From: a virus
Taxonomy: Duplodnaviria; Heunggongvirae; Uroviricota; Caudoviricetes
IMG/VR virus record: IMGVR_UViG_2718217714_000002
Coordinates: 1 to 20,207 of that record
Length of the DNA stretch: 20,207 nt
Reading direction: 5' to 3' (one strand)
The notes under the pieces were generated by a model. It was not told where the DNA came from and did no database searches. It saw nothing but the letters and a program-made list of their open reading frames with translations. Shown here piece after piece: positions 226 to 15,991 of the stretch (its first letter is position 1; each line of letters begins with the position of its first letter). A program made the translations under genes and the position numbers.

Positions 226-690
226 CACTGTTTTTGGTTTTAACTGTTCCGCGTGCGCTCAGCCGCATTCACCACATCACAAAATTCACTTTAAAAAGGG
301 CGGCAGAGCAGTCACGGAGTAAAACTGATACCGCCAAACGTCACCAGAAAATTGATAACAGAGGGCGTTGCAGCGGGGTTGTCACTTAAGCGTATGGTCA
401 ACCTGACAACCCGGTGTCCTCAACGGGGAAGGAATAGCCCCGCCATACTTACCGCCGCGCCATTTCGCGGATTGCCACAACCGGAAGCGCACGGTCGACG
501 AAAATTTAACAACAGGCTATCTATGAACCAGCTACCTCGCCGTGCGCTTTCGCGTTATGGTCTGACTTTTCAGGGAAATATCCTTTCAGTAAACTGTCAG
601 TGCCGGATGCTCACCCGTGTCCGGCGCACGCACTCCACCTCACCCGTGGAGAACTCCTTAATTACCAACCTTAGCTTCGTTGGTTAGCTA

Positions 691-4305: not shown

Positions 4306-4639
4306 CGAGATTAAAGTGCATTAGTTCAGATGCAAATTGACATTTTGTGGCACAGGGTAGAGCTAGCGTGGTTGTCCGCTTTGTGCCAAGAGCAGACGCT
4401 GGTAATTCGTGCCTAATATACTTCACTTAACTTATATCCCAGCTTTGATACAGATCATACAAATTAAATGCCCCAGTAATTGGCAGGCTGAGTAACTTAA
4501 AACTCCTTAGAATATAGGATGATTTGTATCGGCACTCATTCCACCATGCATTCCGATTAATCCCGCATAGCCAGTTGAACTTTGCTACTCTGTGAGAGGT
4601 AGTACCTTCTATCCAGTGCGGATTTAATTAATGGAATAA

Positions 4640-6643
4640 ATGATTATGAGTGAAAATGATACAACCCCAAAGAAGTCTACAAGCCAGGTTAACAAAGCGG
4701 TATTCTTTACATCTGCTTTGCTAATTTTCCTTCTTGTCGCCTTTGCCGCCGTATTCCCGGATGTCGCCGACAAAAATTTTAAACTACTTCAGCAACAAAT
4801 CTTCACGAATGCCAGCTGGTTCTACATACTTGCTGTGGCCCTGATTTTACTGAGCGTCACGTTCCTTGGACTCTCACGTTACGGTGATATAAAGCTGGGC
4901 CCAGACCATGCGCAGCCTGATTTCAGCTACCACTCCTGGTTCGCGATGCTTTTTTCGGCAGGGATGGGGATCGGCCTGATGTTCTTTGGCGTTGCCGAAC
5001 CTGTGATGCATTATCTTTCGCCACCTGTCGGCACTCCAGAGACCGTTGCGGCAGCGAAGGAAGCCATGCGCCTGACGTTCTTCCACTGGGGTCTGCACGC
5101 ATGGGCAATTTATGCCATCGTGGCGCTGATTCTGGCCTTTTTCAGTTACCGTCACGGTCTGCCTTTAACGCTGCGTTCTGCGCTCTATCCCATTATCGGC
5201 GATCGCATTTACGGGCCTATAGGCCACGCGGTTGATATCTTCGCCGTGATAGGCACTGTCTTTGGCGTTGCAACATCGCTGGGTTACGGTGTATTGCAGG
5301 TGAATGCCGGTTTGAACCATCTTTTCGGCGTGCCCATCAATGAAACGGTACAGGTCATTTTGATCGTGGTCATCACGGGGTTAGCGACGATTTCGGTGGT
5401 GTCCGGCCTGGACAAGGGAATACGCATCCTGTCTGAGCTTAATCTGGGCCTGGCGGTGTTGCTCCTGGCGCTGGTCTTGTGCCTGGGTCCCACTGTGCTT
5501 CTGCTGAAGTCATTTGTGGAAAATACGGGTGGTTATCTGTCGGAACTGGTGAGTAAAACGTTCAACCTTTACGCGTATGAACCCAAGTCGAGCAACTGGC
5601 TGGGGGGCTGGACATTATTATACTGGGGATGGTGGCTTTCATGGTCGCCGTTTGTAGGTATGTTCATTGCACGCGTTTCCCGCGGCAGGACAATTCGTGA
5701 GTTCGTGACTGGCGTGTTGTTTGTTCCCGCCGGCTTTACGCTCATGTGGATGACGGTGTTTGGAAACAGCGCCATCTATCTCATCATGAACCAGGGCGCC
5801 ACTGACCTCGCCAATACCGTTCAGCAGGATGTTGCGCTTGCCCTGTTTAATTTCCTGGAGCATTTCCCGTTCTCTTCCGTGCTGTCATTCATTGCAATGG
5901 CGATGGTCATCGTCTTCTTTGTAACGTCTGCTGATTCGGGGGCAATGGTTGTGGATACTCTGGCATCAGGTGGGGTGGCAAACACGCCCGTCTGGCAGCG
6001 AATTTTCTGGGCATTGCTCATGGGCGTTGTTGCTATTGCCCTGCTGATCGCAGGGGGGCTGAGTGCGTTGCAAACCGTAACGATAGCGAGTGCATTGCCC
6101 TTCTCAGTTATCTTATTAATATCCATATACGGACTGTTAAAAGCCCTGCGTCGGGATTTGACCAAGCGTGAAAGCCTTAGCATGGCGACTATTGCTCCTA
6201 CGGCTGCACGTAACCCAATTCCCTGGCAGAGAAGGTTACGCAATATCGCGTATTTGCCGAAGCGCTCTCTTGTGAAACGTTTTATGGACGACATTATCCA
6301 ACCCGCCATGACGCTGGTTCAGGAGGAACTTAACAAGCAGGGAACGATAAGCCACATCAGTGACGCCGCCGAGGATCGTATTCGCCTTGAAGTCGATTTG
6401 GGCAACGAGCTGAATTATATATATGAAGTGAGGCTTCGCGGGTATAACTCACCGACCTTCGCGCTCGCTGCGCTGGATAATGATGAGCAGCAGAGTGAAC
6501 AACATCGATATTATCGCGCTGAAGTCTATCTCAAAGAGGGCGGCCAAAATTATGATGTAATGGGCTGGAATCAGGAACAGCTGATTAATGACATACTGGA
6601 CCAGTACGAAAAACACCTGCACTTCCTGCATCTGGTTCGTTAA
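4640..6643 (+). CDS. BCCT-family transporter, BetT-like (choline/betaine/carnitine type) with C-terminal cytoplasmic domain
   Basis: 667 aa. Multiple TM segments and BCCT signature region WTLLYWGWWLSWSPFVGMFIARVSRGRTIREF. Overall collinear with E. coli BetT as recalled, including the C-terminal ...ILDQYEKHLHFLHL tail. Confidence 0.85.
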   Translation: MIMSENDTTPKKSTSQVNKAVFFTSALLIFLLVAFAAVFPDVADKNFKLLQQQIFTNASWFYILAVALILLSVTFLGLSRYGDIKLGPDHAQPDFSYHSWFAMLFSAGMGIGLMFFGVAEPVMHYLSPPVGTPETVAAAKEAMRLTFFHWGLHAWAIYAIVALILAFFSYRHGLPLTLRSALYPIIGDRIYGPIGHAVDIFAVIGTVFGVATSLGYGVLQVNAGLNHLFGVPINETVQVILIVVITGLATISVVSGLDKGIRILSELNLGLAVLLLALVLCLGPTVLLLKSFVENTGGYLSELVSKTFNLYAYEPKSSNWLGGWTLLYWGWWLSWSPFVGMFIARVSRGRTIREFVTGVLFVPAGFTLMWMTVFGNSAIYLIMNQGATDLANTVQQDVALALFNFLEHFPFSSVLSFIAMAMVIVFFVTSADSGAMVVDTLASGGVANTPVWQRIFWALLMGVVAIALLIAGGLSALQTVTIASALPFSVILLISIYGLLKALRRDLTKRESLSMATIAPTAARNPIPWQRRLRNIAYLPKRSLVKRFMDDIIQPAMTLVQEELNKQGTISHISDAAEDRIRLEVDLGNELNYIYEVRLRGYNSPTFALAALDNDEQQSEQHRYYRAEVYLKEGGQNYDVMGWNQEQLINDILDQYEKHLHFLHLVR

Positions 6644-6650
6644 CAGCAAC

Positions 6651-6679
6651 ATGCCGCCACAGAGGCGGCATTTATTTAT
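6651..6679 (+). terminator. Rho-independent terminator after the BCCT gene
   Basis: Stem ATGCCGCC (6651-6658) / GGCGGCAT (6664-6671) followed by TTTATTTAT. Confidence 0.6.
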
Positions 6680-6691
6680 CCCGGCTGCAAT

Positions 6692-7984
6692 ATGAGGGAA
6701 TGCAGAATGATTTCACGCTGGAAATGGATGCTGAAGCAGACATTTAAAAAACTATGGTTCAGGGCAACGTTATTCGCAATTGTCGCAATAATAACGGCCC
6801 TTTTATCAATTCTTTTTAAATCAATGATACCTGAGTCGGTTTCCGTGAAGGTTGGTGCGGAAGCAGTCGATAACATTCTGAACATACTGGCATCGAGTAT
6901 GCTGGCAGTGACCACATTTTCGCTGAGCATCATGGTCACAGCCTACGGTTCAGCCACTACTAATGTGACTCCCAGAGCTACTCGTTTAGTCGTTGAAGAC
7001 GTCACCACACAAAATGTACTGGCCACCTTCATCGGTTCTTTTCTCTTCAGTCTGGTAGGGATTATTGCCCTCAATATGGGAGCTTATGGAGAAAGGGGGA
7101 GAGTCATTTTATTCATTGTAACACTGGTTGTCATTGCCTTAATCCTCATCACATTGCTTCGCTGGATACAGCATTTGACCTCTCTGGGGAGGGTTGGTGA
7201 GACAACGGCAAAAGTAGAACAGGCGGCCATCGAAACATTTATTGCGAGAGCAAGAAATCCCTGTCTCGGCGGATATCCATGGCTTGAGAACAATGAACAG
7301 CCGAAAGGAACGGTTGCAGTTTATCCGAAAAAGATTGGCTATGTTGAATATGTTGATATGGTGAAACTCAGCAAGCTGCTGACCAATGATCCCCGTCATG
7401 TATACCTCGTGGCGCAGCCGGGCAGTTTCATACATCCGTCCACGCCAGTTTTGTACCTGAGTCAGGGCCAGGAGTCATCAATCAGCACCGATTTACTTGA
7501 GACGATTATTGTCTCGGATGTACGTTCATTTGCTCAGGACCCCCGATTTTGTCTTAGCGTCATGGCCGAAATAGCCTGCCGAGCCCTTTCCCCCGCAGTG
7601 AACGATCCTGGAACCGCCATTGATGTCATTGGCAGAGGTGTACGTATACTTTCCGCTTACGCGCAGAATAAATCTGATGAAATAGAAGTGAAATATCCTT
7701 CTGTACATGTTGCACCACTTCAGAATAACGATCTACTTGAAGACTTTTTCTCACCTGTTGCGCGCGATGGTGCCAGTATGAGGGAAATTCAGATAAGGGT
7801 CCTTAAAGGACTGTCGATGCTGAGTAAGGGTTGGCCTGGAATTTTTGCTGAAGCCGCACAAACCCTAGCATTTGAAACATTAGAGCATGCTACTCGTGCT
7901 GACCATATAGATTCTGACAGATATCTAATAAAATCAATTTATTATAATTTATTTAGTGGCGAAGATTCTAATAAAAAACCATAG
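6692..7984 (+). CDS. Membrane protein with N-terminal TM helices and large C-terminal soluble domain (possibly DUF2254-like)
   Basis: 430-aa ORF. Hydrophobic helices in the first about 160 aa, then a soluble domain. Likely true start at ATG 6707 (GAGGGA SD 7 nt upstream). Family assignment is from memory of the architecture and is unverified. Confidence 0.55.
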   Translation: MRECRMISRWKWMLKQTFKKLWFRATLFAIVAIITALLSILFKSMIPESVSVKVGAEAVDNILNILASSMLAVTTFSLSIMVTAYGSATTNVTPRATRLVVEDVTTQNVLATFIGSFLFSLVGIIALNMGAYGERGRVILFIVTLVVIALILITLLRWIQHLTSLGRVGETTAKVEQAAIETFIARARNPCLGGYPWLENNEQPKGTVAVYPKKIGYVEYVDMVKLSKLLTNDPRHVYLVAQPGSFIHPSTPVLYLSQGQESSISTDLLETIIVSDVRSFAQDPRFCLSVMAEIACRALSPAVNDPGTAIDVIGRGVRILSAYAQNKSDEIEVKYPSVHVAPLQNNDLLEDFFSPVARDGASMREIQIRVLKGLSMLSKGWPGIFAEAAQTLAFETLEHATRADHIDSDRYLIKSIYYNLFSGEDSNKKP

Positions 7985-8266
7985 TTGCGGAGCAAGCGAT
8001 ACGGTTGTTGGCAAGTCAAGGGCAAAGCATTCGCGTGAGAGTGGGCGTCTGCTTTGTGCCAGGAGCGGAAGTTGCCAAGAGAACTCTTGCAAAGGTATGA
8101 TAACGTAGGTGCTAAATAATCATGAACCATAATAAATTAAAGGTTTTTAAGTTGACTCTATGGCGTTTCTTTTGCATGATGATTTTTTATTTATTATATA
8201 AAGCTTAAATATACATAATATTTAGCTTCATTTTTTTAGGTATTTTAAAGATTTAGAGGAATGTGA

Positions 8267-9610
8267 ATGGCTACTTATGCTTCTTATTTACCAGAATCAC
8301 AAATTATCACTTTGTGCAAGGATTTCCCAGCGTTTACTGATCCTGAAAAATTAGATGGATTCATTAATCCAGAACAGTTTGGCGTGTTTTTTCATGAGTG
8401 GATTCATTTTCTTCACAATATTTCCACAATTAATGGGTTTTCTATTTTTTGCACGCAAAACATCCTGTGGTCTAATTTTCGCTGGGCAATGGACAATCAG
8501 GATGTATGTCTTGGTTCAAATGACATGGATCCAGCACATATCGAATCAAACAAAAATTTTCTCAGTTACATTCGTTCCAATAGGAGTCCGCATAAATGTA
8601 ACTTACCTTATTATGTAAAAGTAAACGACTTGTATTTTGAGGATGCAATAATCCATGACATGGAGGTTGCTGACGGTAGTGTTATATGTACATCATTAAT
8701 AAAGTGTAGAATTTCTCATTCTGAAAACAAATACGATCTAGATTTAGGCGTGCTTGAAATACTTGAATCCGCAGCTTTTATGCTTGAATGTAAGTGTATT
8801 AATGCGATGAATGGCTTCCCTCAAGAGGCACCCTTTTATCCGTATCATACTATCAAGGGCTTAGCAGCGAAAATTGCTCCGTCATTAAATGATGAAGATA
8901 TTATTTGTTGTATGTTAGCTTCTTTGCAATCTAATAACCCTCCCCAAGTATTATTCAATCTACTACATAAATGTGAATTATTACATTCTGATTGTAGGTA
9001 TGAACATCTAGTGGCGGAGGTGAAAAAACAATTAAGCGAACAAGATCAAATAATAAGCGAGTCACTTAATCAAATAATTCAAATGATTCCTGTTGATGAA
9101 CCGATGGGAAACTTTATCAAGCTTACTCTTAACAGAATAAGTAACAATTTGAACTATAGAAAGCAAAAACCGTTTTTTGAGTTAGATATAATAAAAAAAA
9201 TAGCAGAAAAAACTGAGTTTATGAATGAAGTAATACAGAAATTCGGTGGTTGCACTATCATCCAGGTAAGACATGGAGATGATAATGAACCACAGCGTGA
9301 TATTATGTATGACTTTTGCTTACCTGAAAATAATGATTCAATTTTATTTGGTTCGAAAATGCTACGCGCTTGTTTTCACTTTATATTTATTCACTTTAAA
9401 CTTTCTGGTGAAATCATGAAGACAGAAGAATTAAATATTTCGCCGCGTAATAAATGCCCATTTTATACTGTTTGCTGTGCATCAATTCGAGCTAATAATA
9501 GTAATATCTGCGCTGAATCCCCTTGGAAATCAATGTCTATTGATGACAACAAAGGTTGTTATTATGCAGCAGCGATTAAAGCTACTAACCCACCAGTTTT
9601 GCCGGATTAA
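8267..9610 (+). CDS. Hypothetical 447-aa protein with N-terminal HExxH motif (possible zinc metallopeptidase-like), in an AT-rich island
   Basis: Long ORF with AGAGGA SD. FFHEWIHFLHN at residues about 41-51. Cys-rich C-terminal part. Markedly AT-rich by eye relative to neighbours. No family recognised. Confidence 0.6.
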   Translation: MATYASYLPESQIITLCKDFPAFTDPEKLDGFINPEQFGVFFHEWIHFLHNISTINGFSIFCTQNILWSNFRWAMDNQDVCLGSNDMDPAHIESNKNFLSYIRSNRSPHKCNLPYYVKVNDLYFEDAIIHDMEVADGSVICTSLIKCRISHSENKYDLDLGVLEILESAAFMLECKCINAMNGFPQEAPFYPYHTIKGLAAKIAPSLNDEDIICCMLASLQSNNPPQVLFNLLHKCELLHSDCRYEHLVAEVKKQLSEQDQIISESLNQIIQMIPVDEPMGNFIKLTLNRISNNLNYRKQKPFFELDIIKKIAEKTEFMNEVIQKFGGCTIIQVRHGDDNEPQRDIMYDFCLPENNDSILFGSKMLRACFHFIFIHFKLSGEIMKTEELNISPRNKCPFYTVCCASIRANNSNICAESPWKSMSIDDNKGCYYAAAIKATNPPVLPD

Positions 9611-10156
9611 GAATAGTGTTCTATCTGATAAATATAAAATATTTAAGGTCAGGTCTGCTTATCGCTCAAAGCGGACTAGAAGGTTAGCTTGCGTCGGACT
9701 TGGCGTATTTAAAGAAGTACTGGTGGTGACTGGTTGTTGTGTTCCATTTCTACAGAACAAAATCACAGAAACTATACCCAATAGTTGTATCTCATCAATG
9801 ATGAGACAGCCTCATATTTATCAGGACTGGTGTACGTCCAATACAGGAGGTTGTCGTGCTGGTTCTCAAATGTGCGCTGGCTATTGCAGCTGTAATGGCA
9901 ATTTATTGTCTTGCTGTTGTTCTTATGGATCGCCTTTCTGATTGATTTTATATTGGCGAGGTAACGGGAGTTAAGTAGAATGGCTGCGGGTGCTTGAGGC
10001 TATCTGTCTCAGGCATGAACACCAAAGGCAGATAGAGAAAAGCCCCAGTTAACATTACGCGTCCTGCAAGACGCTTAACATTAATCTGAGGCTCAATCTA
10101 TGAACGGCAAATCTAGGTTAGCCTCTTACGTGCCGAAAGGCAAGGAGAAGCAGGCT

Positions 10157-10312
10157 ATGAAGCAGCAAAAGGCGATGTTAATCGCCCTGATCGTCATCTG
10201 TTTAACCGTCATAGTGACGGCACTGGTAACGAGGAAAGACCTCTGCGAGGTACGAATCCGAACCGGCCAGACGGAGGTCGCTGTCTTCACAGCTTACGAA
10301 CCTGAGGAGTAA
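10157..10312 (+). CDS. hokD: Hok/Gef-family type I toxin (HokD/RelF-like, 51 aa)
   Basis: MKQQKAMLIALIVICLTVIVTALVTRKDLCEVRIRTGQTEVAVFTAYEPEE matches Hok-family sequence as recalled. AAGGAG SD upstream. Overlapping upstream mok-like frame from 10100. 5' tac-like (about 9985-10000) and 3' fbi-like (about 10350-10376) complementary elements. Confidence 0.85.
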   Translation: MKQQKAMLIALIVICLTVIVTALVTRKDLCEVRIRTGQTEVAVFTAYEPEE

Positions 10313-12189: not shown

Positions 12190-12532
12190 TATGTATGAGG
12201 TTTTAGACCGCTGGGGGGCATGGGCTGCAGCAGAAAATAGTGGTGTCGATTGGCAACCGATAGCAGCGGGCTTCAAGGGGCTTTTACCTCATGGCAAAAA
12301 GTCACGGATTCAGTGTGATGATGACGAAGGCATTATGATAGACAGTTGTGTGGCTCGGTTGAGAAGGTATAAACCAGAGGAATATGAGCTCATCATAGCC
12401 CACTTTGTTATTGGTATCTCATTACGCACTATTGCCAAAAAGAGAAGGTGTTCAGATGGCACGATTAGAAAGGAATTACAAACTGCAATTGGTTTTGTAG
12501 AGGGTATTACGAGCGTTATTGCATGTAAATAA
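12179..12532 (+). CDS. Late-gene antitermination protein Q (short Q, quuD/quuQ-like)
   Basis: MGRDMYEVLDRWGAWAA...IAAGFKGL... aligns with the N-terminus of DLP12 QuuD as recalled (MRDIQMVLERWGAW...AAGFKGL). Start chosen at ATG 12179 (AGAGG SD 9 nt upstream); the track ORF starts at 12170. Confidence 0.7.
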   Translation: MGRDMYEVLDRWGAWAAAENSGVDWQPIAAGFKGLLPHGKKSRIQCDDDEGIMIDSCVARLRRYKPEEYELIIAHFVIGISLRTIAKKRRCSDGTIRKELQTAIGFVEGITSVIACK

Positions 12533-12537
12533 AAGCT

Positions 12538-12559
12538 AAAAGCCACCGTAGTGGCTTTT
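12538..12559. terminator. Bidirectional rho-independent terminator between Q (+) and the converging minus-strand cargo operon
   Basis: AAAAGCCAC-CGTA-GTGGCTTTT. T-rich 3' flank on both strands (AGCATTTT on plus, AGCTTTTATTT on minus). Confidence 0.6.
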
Positions 12560-12565
12560 AGCATT

Positions 12566-12715
12566 TTAGGATTGTGCAGGTAATGTTTTGTTCAATTTAG
12601 TAAAGAAGTTAGATTGGCTTGTTACAGTACGTCGACTCTTTCCAGAAGTACTCAACTGAAAGAAATCATTGATGCTTTTGGGTTGAGTTCTTTCATAGGC
12701 TTGCTTAAGTGACAT
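12566..12715 (-). CDS. Candidate small ORF (49 aa) immediately downstream of the proteasome-like gene
   Basis: My own translation of the reverse complement: MSLKQAYERTQPKSINDFFQLSTSGKSRRTVTSQSNFFTKLNKTLPAQS. Possible GGGGA SD about 5 nt upstream. Below the ORF-track size cut-off. Coding status unproven. Confidence 0.25.
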   Translation of the reverse strand: MSLKQAYERTQPKSINDFFQLSTSGKSRRTVTSQSNFFTKLNKTLPAQS

Positions 12716-12738
12716 GTGTTCCCCTTGTCTATTTGTTG

Positions 12739-14022
12739 CTATGACCGTGAAAAGTAGTGATGGTTCAGTTCTTTTGCAAAATAGTGCTTACGTTTAACCC
12801 AGATAAAACCATCAGCTTTAGAAATGATTGCAACATCTATGGGGCCTCCCACTGTTTCAGTATCATCGGAGACCTTGCGCTTGAAAGCGGTTAAATTTAC
12901 TAATGATTCAGCCATATAAGCTAAATCTTGCTTGGGTAAAAACTCGATCATATTTACGACTTTGTCAACATAGTTTTCTCGGACAAAGCTATCAATACGC
13001 CCCTTGCAATCGGAAACAGTTCTGCGCACTACATCAACTATAGCATCCTTGGCTCCTTCGATATCTGAAGTGGGCACCAAATCTGTGATTACTGAATCAA
13101 TACCATCAAGTAAATCGCCGATAGAACGTTGATACTCAGCATGAAGATTTTGGATAAGATGTGAACTAGCTCCTTGCATGAAAGCAGAAACTTCATCCTC
13201 TTGCGCAAAGGGAGTCACGCCGCAATTAGGAGTGATGCAGCACTTGTCAGCATCTGTGGTTTTCCTTATTTTATCATTAAAGAAGCCACAAACTTCATAT
13301 GATAATACTTTAGGGTAATAGTCTTTATCGCCATAACCTGCAATCACAATCCCAGAGACGGAACCAATATCACTTTGCTTGCATATCATAGCTGCCAATA
13401 CATCACTAACTGCTTTTGTCAACTGTGGAGTTATGGATATTGAATCAAAGTCACTAAACTTTTGAGCAATGATGCGTTGGGTAATTGATGAAGCATAGGT
13501 TTGGGCTGCTTGTTCATCATCCGGAGTAAAACCATCAAAGTAATTAATATCAGATAATTTTGTAAGGAGATCGTTGCAATAATTCGTGAGGTCTGTAACA
13601 AATTGATTCTTATCGAAGTTAACGAGATATGTTGGTTCGAGACCTTCAGAAAAAGCATCAACAAGCATGCTGAATACAATCTCGCTCAGGAAGTGATAAA
13701 GATGAGCCTCACGCATACCTGGTGTGATGATTGATTTAGCTGACTGTAGATAATTGAAGAAATCCTCAGCATATTCCTCCAAAGAGTCAAAACATTTAGA
13801 GCCTAAATCCTTTCTATAAGCCTTAATGATAAGCTCCCATGGAGCTGTGCAGAGATCACCAGTTCCATATACCATCAAACCTACAGGATGATGTTTAGTG
13901 AGAGCGAAAAGCTTTTCAGCGCCATTATAGATTTTATGTTTGCCGCCTCCAGAAATCGTTACAGCTGAATCTGCGGCTAAAGCTACTGCGGTCTTGTTAA
14001 ATACGGCTATTTCTGCTGTCAT
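12739..14022 (-). CDS. Enlarged proteasome beta-subunit/HslV-like (Ntn-hydrolase fold) protein, 427 aa
   Basis: N-terminus M-TAEIAVFNKTAVALAADSAVT...EKLFAL...GLMVYGTGD aligns by eye with HslV and archaeal 20S beta (Thr1, Asp17, Lys about 33-36). C-terminus VGGPIDVAIISKADGFIWV matches the beta-subunit SGGMIDVAVITRKDGYV motif. About 200 extra residues lie between. AT-rich, no canonical SD. Confidence 0.7.
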   Translation of the reverse strand: MTAEIAVFNKTAVALAADSAVTISGGGKHKIYNGAEKLFALTKHHPVGLMVYGTGDLCTAPWELIIKAYRKDLGSKCFDSLEEYAEDFFNYLQSAKSIITPGMREAHLYHFLSEIVFSMLVDAFSEGLEPTYLVNFDKNQFVTDLTNYCNDLLTKLSDINYFDGFTPDDEQAAQTYASSITQRIIAQKFSDFDSISITPQLTKAVSDVLAAMICKQSDIGSVSGIVIAGYGDKDYYPKVLSYEVCGFFNDKIRKTTDADKCCITPNCGVTPFAQEDEVSAFMQGASSHLIQNLHAEYQRSIGDLLDGIDSVITDLVPTSDIEGAKDAIVDVVRRTVSDCKGRIDSFVRENYVDKVVNMIEFLPKQDLAYMAESLVNLTAFKRKVSDDTETVGGPIDVAIISKADGFIWVKRKHYFAKELNHHYFSRS

Positions 14023-14132
14023 TTTTTACATAGGGTTTATATGTTGTGTAATGAGAAAAATACAAAAAAATTAACGCGTACGCAAAAATTCTTGTAATCT
14101 GTTAAGAGTGGTTACTTCGCCACACAGCTTAA

Positions 14133-14157
14133 ACCCGCCGTCGAGCGGGTTTTTTTG
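14133..14157 (+). terminator. Plus-strand intrinsic terminator-like hairpin in the divergent promoter region
   Basis: ACCCGC-CGTCGA-GCGGGT followed by TTTTTTTG. No plus-strand gene lies upstream of it. Confidence 0.45.
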
Positions 14158-14254
14158 TACCTGTAAACTTGGTGCAGTACGGTAAACACGCTGGTGGTAG
14201 TGAATACTGACTTTTTATCTTGCTGGCTTTTTAGACAAGAGTTATTGGTATGTC

Positions 14255-15837: not shown

Positions 15838-15913
<76 letters not shown>

Positions 15914-15916
15914 TAT

Positions 15917-15991
<75 letters not shown>

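Follow-up and report, generated by a model that had tools for sequence, protein, structure and literature searches.

Here we describe an AT-rich island that encodes a single 447-aa protein with an HExxH motif, located in a 20,207-nucleotide stretch of viral DNA (IMG/VR record IMGVR_UViG_2718217714_000002; hereafter the window) that is the reverse complement of chromosomal sequence from Escherichia coli strain H3 (NZ_CP010167.1). The island is a mobile unit bounded by two short dyad-symmetric elements, it is also found in P2-type prophages, and relatives of its gene recur beside known defence genes, so that its status as a defence candidate is well supported by context. Our overall reading, held tentatively and at slightly less than an even chance, is that it is a mobile single-gene defence cassette whose product would be a latent metallopeptidase-type protein working like Lit. 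Cargo of prophage hotspots and single-gene candidates for abortive infection (Abi) are of a known kind; what is new here is a protein family that none of the libraries contains, together with the architecture of its members.

The original prediction had pointed to a separately acquired AT-rich region at 8100-9960, holding one long open reading frame (ORF) with a good Shine-Dalgarno sequence directly upstream of the hok locus, and most of this was confirmed. The guanine plus cytosine (GC) content is 0.329 for positions 8070-9652 and 0.342 for the ORF (0.284 at its third codon positions), compared with a window mean of 0.466 and a standard deviation of 0.048 among segments of equal length, and the island has the lowest value of the whole window. 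The ORF, whose RefSeq entry is the hypothetical protein WP_073520295.1, has its ribosome-binding GAGG in place and is followed by sok and hokD (Table 1). The limits of the island had to be redrawn: since the backbone of sister prophages and the homology to P2-type prophages meet at these ends, the acquired unit is 8047-9677, and bases 9678-9960 (GC 0.42) are assigned to the prophage backbone because they are common to sister prophages bearing other cargo. The region 8072-8180 lies within the shared unit and is a candidate for a promoter travelling with the gene, with two sigma-70-like sites whose number is not above chance.

Separate acquisition was strongly supported by the distribution of the gene, which was present in 13 of 5426 complete E. 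coli genomes, always at a nucleotide identity of at least 99.6%. All three of the other carriers inspected hold it in a P2-type prophage, between the genes for tail-fibre assembly (G) and tail sheath (FI), and the unit shared by these copies and the window amounts to 1631 bp with five differences, which produce one amino-acid change (P108L). Comparison of the same slot in related prophages, as had originally been proposed, revealed varied occupants: sister Qin-like prophages of E. coli have the same backbone on both sides and different cargo between, namely ParA with two hypothetical proteins, an S1/trypsin-like peptidase, or two separate single genes. In E. coli JNEC-KY178 (L017, 2580-3572) the alternative cargo of the window's slot is a 330-aa trypsin-like S1 peptidase, whose protease domain resembles domains fused to defence proteins (PADLOC RT-Protease_XI, LmuA and HamA, E 1e-7 to 1e-13), making it a second protease-type single-gene candidate for this position.

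The G/FI locus of P2 is a horizontally acquired 'Z-region' (PMC3091744), documented as a moron position (PMC3091744, PMC3573123), and in phage P2 it holds fun(Z), annotated as blocking T5 and described as a broad Abi system (PMC8594841). Fun(Z) has a GC content of 0.328 and shares the slot and the type of flanking element with the 447-aa gene, but it is a 528-aa protein encoded on the opposite (minus) strand and has no HExxH; homology between the two was rejected, as neither blastp nor tblastn detected any similarity.

Both ends of the unit fall in 24-bp dyad-symmetric elements with the consensus GTCYGCT-N10-AGCRGAC, of which the A type has the core GTGCCA and the B type, a diverged copy of A in inverse orientation, has the core TCGCTCAA. 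An A element begins the unit at 8047 and a B element, starting at 9653, closes it; with a third element, again of A type, the window contains the array A-[BCCT, DUF2254]-A-[447-aa gene]-B, that is, three elements where 0.03 would be expected by chance. On the left, P2-type similarity begins at 8047 and the sister backbone runs to 8069, so the two overlap inside the A element; on the right, P2-type similarity stops at 9677 and the sister backbone resumes at 9649-9654. Moreover three of the five differences from the P2-type copy fall within the A and B elements, and because at each of these the outer arm in the window shows the base of the backbone while the inner part follows the P2-type sequence, the crossovers can be placed inside the elements. 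The best explanation is that the exchange with the Z-region slot of P2-type prophages was recent and occurred by recombination inside the boundary elements. We read the island as a self-contained moron cassette, with its own upstream region and one gene, housed by a defective Qin-like prophage in a slot whose cargo varies.

The same A and B bracket surrounds the 447-aa gene in L002-L004 (at 5848 and 7454 in L002), further elements are present in L018 (3548, 4707 and 5987), and in phage P2 (L151) degenerate A and B copies flank fun(Z), near 940 and 3030. An inverted repeat of 12 bp (AATCTGACAGTC ... GACTGTCAGATT) lies in the P2 backbone directly outside the two elements of L002, at 5830-5847 and 7479-7490, and is also found in degenerate form around fun(Z) in P2. 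In Enterobacter (L005, 9565-9588) an A-type element lies about 220 bp downstream of P0011, a 62%-identical homologue, which suggests that this gene, too, entered its non-prophage defence island in a cassette of this kind.

When IMG/VR was scanned for the exact pattern of the elements, more than 119 stretches were returned, with fewer than one expected by chance. Among the matches listed (loci L022-L140), about 30 A...B pairs enclose 0.5-5.8 kb of DNA, usually of lower GC content than its flanks, and consecutive cassettes are joined by a B element, 15 to 18 bp and an A element. The flanking genes define two host slots, P2 G/FI (L055, L117) and the lambdoid slot of the window, after replication/DUF977 genes and before hok/DUF968-HNH (L080, L123, L061, L082), so that these cassettes occur in both P2-type and lambdoid prophages. 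Their cargo is highly varied, falling into 48 clusters of proteins of at least 100 aa, and six of the ten largest cargo proteins, admittedly a small sample, matched PADLOC models: a CBASS cyclase and its E1-E2 protein, DRT RT_UG17, PDC-S06 (AAA_13), PDC-S15 (FRG) and, weakly, a RelA_SpoT protein (PDC-S33, E 1.5e-8). Phages with the flanking genes of the window's slot carry type II CBASS in L080 and PDC-S06 in L123.

A/B cassettes are thus units of one or a few genes, mostly of low GC content, exchanged at one locus between short conserved dyad-symmetric sites. They differ from integrons in having no evident linked integrase gene and no attC R and L boxes, and in being bracketed by two element types, with B and A about 18 bp apart between neighbours. 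A structured RNA or stable hairpin was considered for the elements and rejected: the calculated folding energies lie between -2 and -5 kcal/mol and their z-scores do not stand out, the pairs at stem position 4/21 (CG 38, CA 11, TG 15, TA 1) show no compensatory pattern, and Rfam gave no match to the elements. A dyad-symmetric protein-binding or recombination site is a better fit. The title of a 2004 paper by Nilsson et al. (cited in PMC9122126) suggests that it reported repeats of this sort in the P2 Z-region, so the A/B elements may partly have been described already and their priority is uncertain. Their part in carrying modern defence systems across phage lineages seems to have been under-appreciated, and a 2026 study of P2/P4 hotspots in Nucleic Acids Research leaves the swapping mechanism open in its discussion (PMC13586616).

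The location in cargo hotspots and defence islands recurs among the relatives of the 447-aa protein. A profile scan of genome contigs with an alignment of 36 sequences yielded nine loci. Within 8 kb of homologues we found a retron-type reverse transcriptase with an AAA_15 ATPase and insertion sequences (the Enterobacter non-prophage defence island), GajA/GajB-like genes with a RES protein (a satellite-like element), an AAA ATPase and helicase followed by QueC-like and nuclease genes (a Cupriavidus plasmid), and a directly adjoining tnsABCD(E) module in Rheinheimera, suggesting that the homologue there is Tn7-like cargo. Other neighbours were the end of a DUF5906 integrative element, E1/E2/JAB genes, a STAND-like ATPase, pPIWI-RE with a MukB-like protein, LmuA with PDC-S71, PDC-S39 and an integrase; Gabija-like genes adjoin homologues twice. 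Distant homologues likewise stand as single genes: a conserved partner gene was sought and discarded as a possibility, since a comparison of the ORFs on either side of the gene in seven contexts showed no similarity among them. In Odoribacter laneus (Bacteroidota; L149, 7899-9197) a protein matching the N-terminal domain only (query residues 33-235, 25% identity) adjoins a gene for a 1932-aa RHS/TcdB-type toxin, and may represent a separate use of the zincin-like domain.

The protein belongs to a large family. A word-index search gave 36 full-length homologue clusters and an exhaustive profile search 1028 representatives at 50% identity (E ≤1e-3), 275 of them with E ≤1e-30; nearly all are 440-500 aa long and align end to end, most come from Pseudomonadota, and a few plasmids encode one. 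The motif sits in FFHEWIHFLHN, residues 41-51, and while a few percent of proteins as long as this one would contain an HExxH by chance, here it is meaningful because it is kept across 163 full-length members whose median identity is 24%. In all of these H43, E44, Y193, R298, C397, C415, W420 and C431 are invariant, and H47, N51, E167, C403 and P419 are kept in 162, H376 in 158 and C329 in 146. The HExxH of the original prediction therefore stood, but the nearby third His proposed with it did not, since position 50 is H in only 117 of the 163 and Q in 30; downstream of the motif N51 is followed by T54. From the alignment, E167 rather than H50 is the candidate for the third metal ligand. The four C-terminal cysteines, spaced C-x5-C-x11-C-x15-C in CPFY and PW contexts with H376 and C329 upstream, probably form a structural zinc or iron-sulphur (Fe-S) site. 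Such enzyme-like conservation would support the reading as a defence enzyme. Neither a signal peptide nor a membrane segment was found in the protein, which we therefore take to be cytoplasmic.

AlphaFold2 produced confident models of the full-length protein (predicted local distance difference test, pLDDT, 92.4; predicted template modelling score, pTM, 0.92) and of residues 1-240 (pLDDT 91.2, pTM 0.89). The HExxH lies within helix 35-53 and E167 on helix 162-180, 120 residues further on, in models with pLDDT above 90, and the N-terminal fold is probably zincin-like. Gluzincin peptidases made up 12 of the 20 top structural neighbours of this domain and were the only coherent group, with ArdC and MATCAP also among the neighbours; the alignments cover 110-127 residues at 10-19% identity, so that the enrichment is clear and the scores are weak, and a Foldseek search of the Protein Data Bank (PDB) with the full model returned nothing (best E 0.73). 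The likeness to gluzincins (clan MA(E): M1 aminopeptidases/LTA4H, M4 thermolysin, M30 lugdulysin) consists in a helix-borne HExxH and an invariant Glu on a later helix, with E167 as the presumed third ligand; the 447-aa protein matches no curated peptidase family model in Pfam or NCBIfam. Among the folds suggested at the outset, a metzincin is not supported: the sequence reads HEWIHFLHNIS, with no Gly at +3 and no HExxHxxGxxH, and H50 is kept in only 117 of the 163 members. An HExxH...E site need not belong to a peptidase, and a defence or exclusion gene might instead encode a metal-dependent hydrolase or oxygenase acting on nucleic acids, nucleotides or small molecules, or a metal-dependent sensor; the Cys4 module, which may hold Fe-S, would then be what does the work. 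We regard this as unlikely, given the predominance of gluzincins among the neighbours and the lack of a match at E ≤1 to the NCBIfam families for HEXXH modification.

We favour instead a soluble single-chain protein whose N-terminal half would be a divergent gluzincin-like metal site: H43 and H47 would bind the metal, probably with E167 as a third ligand, and E44 would serve as general base, with Y193, R298 and H376 also candidates for active-site residues. The C-terminal half would form the Cys4 metal module. Expressed from the prophage, the protein would stay latent until some component of an incoming phage activates it, and would then halt the infection by cleaving a host or phage protein that is essential. 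This logic is borrowed from Lit of the defective prophage e14 (peptidase family U49), likewise a single prophage-encoded cytoplasmic protein with HExxH, in which the motif is essential and which is a latent protease triggered by a phage product to cause abortive infection. The two proteins show no sequence relationship (no PADLOC or Pfam match), and the 447-aa protein differs by an added helical region and the Cys4 module; by sequence it belongs neither to the Lit family nor to any other defence system catalogued so far.

Several results weigh against a defence function of this kind. Searched with the protein, Pfam and NCBIfam gave no match, PADLOC-DB v2 gave no family at E ≤1, and sequence-profile searches of the PDB, one built on 36 and one on 146 sequences, returned nothing beyond coiled-coil noise; no relative was found in 50,697 deposited phage genomes. 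The cargo of the neighbouring cassette of the same type, BCCT/DUF2254, is not obviously defensive, and an identical 3.65-kb cassette between two A elements is present in L038, L060, L069 and L076. The P2 slot likewise carries non-defence cargo, namely neaT, a bacteraemia fitness gene, in strain CFT073 (PMC3573123), and the Aeromonas homologues L008 and L010 lie among housekeeping genes with no recognisable defence neighbour. The suggestion of an abortive-infection or defence gene is accordingly carried by context (hotspots, island neighbours, cassettes with defence cargo) and finds no counterpart among known defence families. Outside these libraries the only match was PHROG 15354, of unknown function; all public names for the protein are 'hypothetical', Pfam searches with 103 relatives (E ≤1) gave only scattered chance matches, including one isolated Peptidase_M85 (E 0.0097), and in the literature we found no description of the accessions, the element sequences or a zincin-type anti-phage protein of this kind.

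The neighbouring BCCT/DUF2254 cargo, neaT and the Aeromonas contexts would all fit a moron for lysogenic conversion or fitness, moved by the same cassette system and with no anti-phage role, as would the occurrence of the gene in avian-pathogenic and enterotoxigenic E. coli strains. This explanation seems improbable to us, because the protein is predicted to be cytoplasmic, co-location with known defence genes recurs across unrelated taxa, and the slot is shared with Fun(Z), CBASS and PDC-S06. A role in counter-defence or as a weapon between phages, for instance as a protease destroying a host defence protein or the repressor of a rival prophage, would agree with the prophage location and with the presence of anti-defence genes in variable phage loci (PMC9122126). 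We consider it quite improbable: the gene is intact in a defective prophage unable to make virions (the holin gene is frameshifted, and the lysozyme and tail-fibre genes are truncated), and its homologues were located on chromosomes, on plasmids and on a Tn7-like element next to defence genes, whereas the deposited phage genomes hold none. Finally, an ImmA/IrrE-type metalloprotease cleaving the prophage repressor (Peptidase_M78, COG2856), to which the HExxH motif and prophage location had pointed, is disfavoured to the point of being highly improbable, since neither the protein nor any of the 103 relatives gave a Peptidase_M78 match (for the relatives at E ≤1), the 447 aa include extra domains, about 20 contexts contained no adjacent helix-turn-helix/XRE partner and no conserved co-transferred repressor gene, and the gene is far from the immunity region.

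If the cassette does protect against phages, the protein would represent a defence family invisible to current detectors (PADLOC and Pfam-based tools), with a clear catalytic hypothesis addressable by four point mutants, and a clean single-gene model for infection sensing by a latent protease-like effector. The boundary elements provide a concrete, sequence-level handle on the long-standing question of how prophage hotspots gain and lose defence genes and how these genes pass between phages of unrelated types, and A...B pairs a simple search key for further unannotated cargo. A broader proposal, which we put forward as doubtful, joins both parts: the 447-aa protein would be the founder of a widespread and hitherto unnamed family of single-chain enzymes for phage defence (about 1000 clusters at 50% identity, most of them from Pseudomonadota) in which a highly divergent zincin site is coupled to an infection-sensing Cys4 (possibly Fe-S) module, and the A/B elements would be an integron-like cassette-exchange system with no linked integrase that moves defence genes between temperate phages of unrelated lineage, namely P2-like myoviruses and lambdoid phages. 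Such exchange, if true, would explain how defence hotspots are refilled.

Table 1. Positions of the cassette, its gene and other features in the window
Feature	Position	Strand	Remarks
DicF RNA	298-349	-	Rfam
Third boundary element, A type	4374-4397	strandless	opens the preceding BCCT/DUF2254 cassette
BCCT-family transporter gene and DUF2254 membrane-protein gene	4646-7984	+	separate 3.65-kb cassette with an A element on each side
Left boundary element, A type, GTCTGCTTTGTGCCAGGAGCGGAA	8047-8070	strandless	imperfect palindrome; arms GTCTGCT-TTGTGCCAGG-AGCGGAA
Sigma-70-like site	8072-8101	+	TTGCCA-18-TATGAT, 10/12 consensus matches
Sigma-70-like site	8152-8180	+	TTGACT-17-CATGAT; consensus match
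447-aa ORF	8267-9610	+	ATG start; GAGG 7 nt before ATG
N-terminal domain, residues 1-240	8267-8986	+	predicted beta-hairpin, HExxH helix, two helices, five-stranded sheet, E167 helix
HExxH codons, H43-E44-W45-I46-H47	8393-8407	+	alignment
E167 codon	8765-8767	+	helix G161-x-x-E-I-x-E167-x-x-A170; 162/163 members
C-terminal Cys4 module	9455-9559	+	alignment; C397-P-F-Y-x2-C403 ... R408 ... C415-x3-P-W420 ... C431-x-Y433
Right boundary element, B type, GTCTGCTTATCGCTCAAAGCGGAC	9653-9676	strandless	imperfect palindrome; arms GTCTGCT-TATCGCTCAA-AGCGGAC
sok antitoxin RNA of the hokD locus	9988-10162	+	Rfam
hokD	10157-10312		annotation
Prophage-borne tRNA, annotated Thr	15838-15910	+	Rfam
Prophage-borne tRNA, annotated Gly	15917-15988	+	Rfam

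The prophage that houses the cassette is a defective, Qin-like, lambdoid element at the site between ynfA and ydfJ, with DicF, ydfABC, a replication module, hokD/sok, DUF968, RusA and Q among its genes, and the RNAs detected with Rfam together with the two tRNAs confirm it as a cryptic prophage of Qin type. It contains a second AT-rich stretch, at about 12250-14250 (GC 0.37-0.41), in which a 427-aa hypothetical protein is encoded on the minus strand (12739-14022), with the gene for the Q antiterminator on one side and one for a DNA methyltransferase on the other, and which possibly represents another moron or defence candidate.

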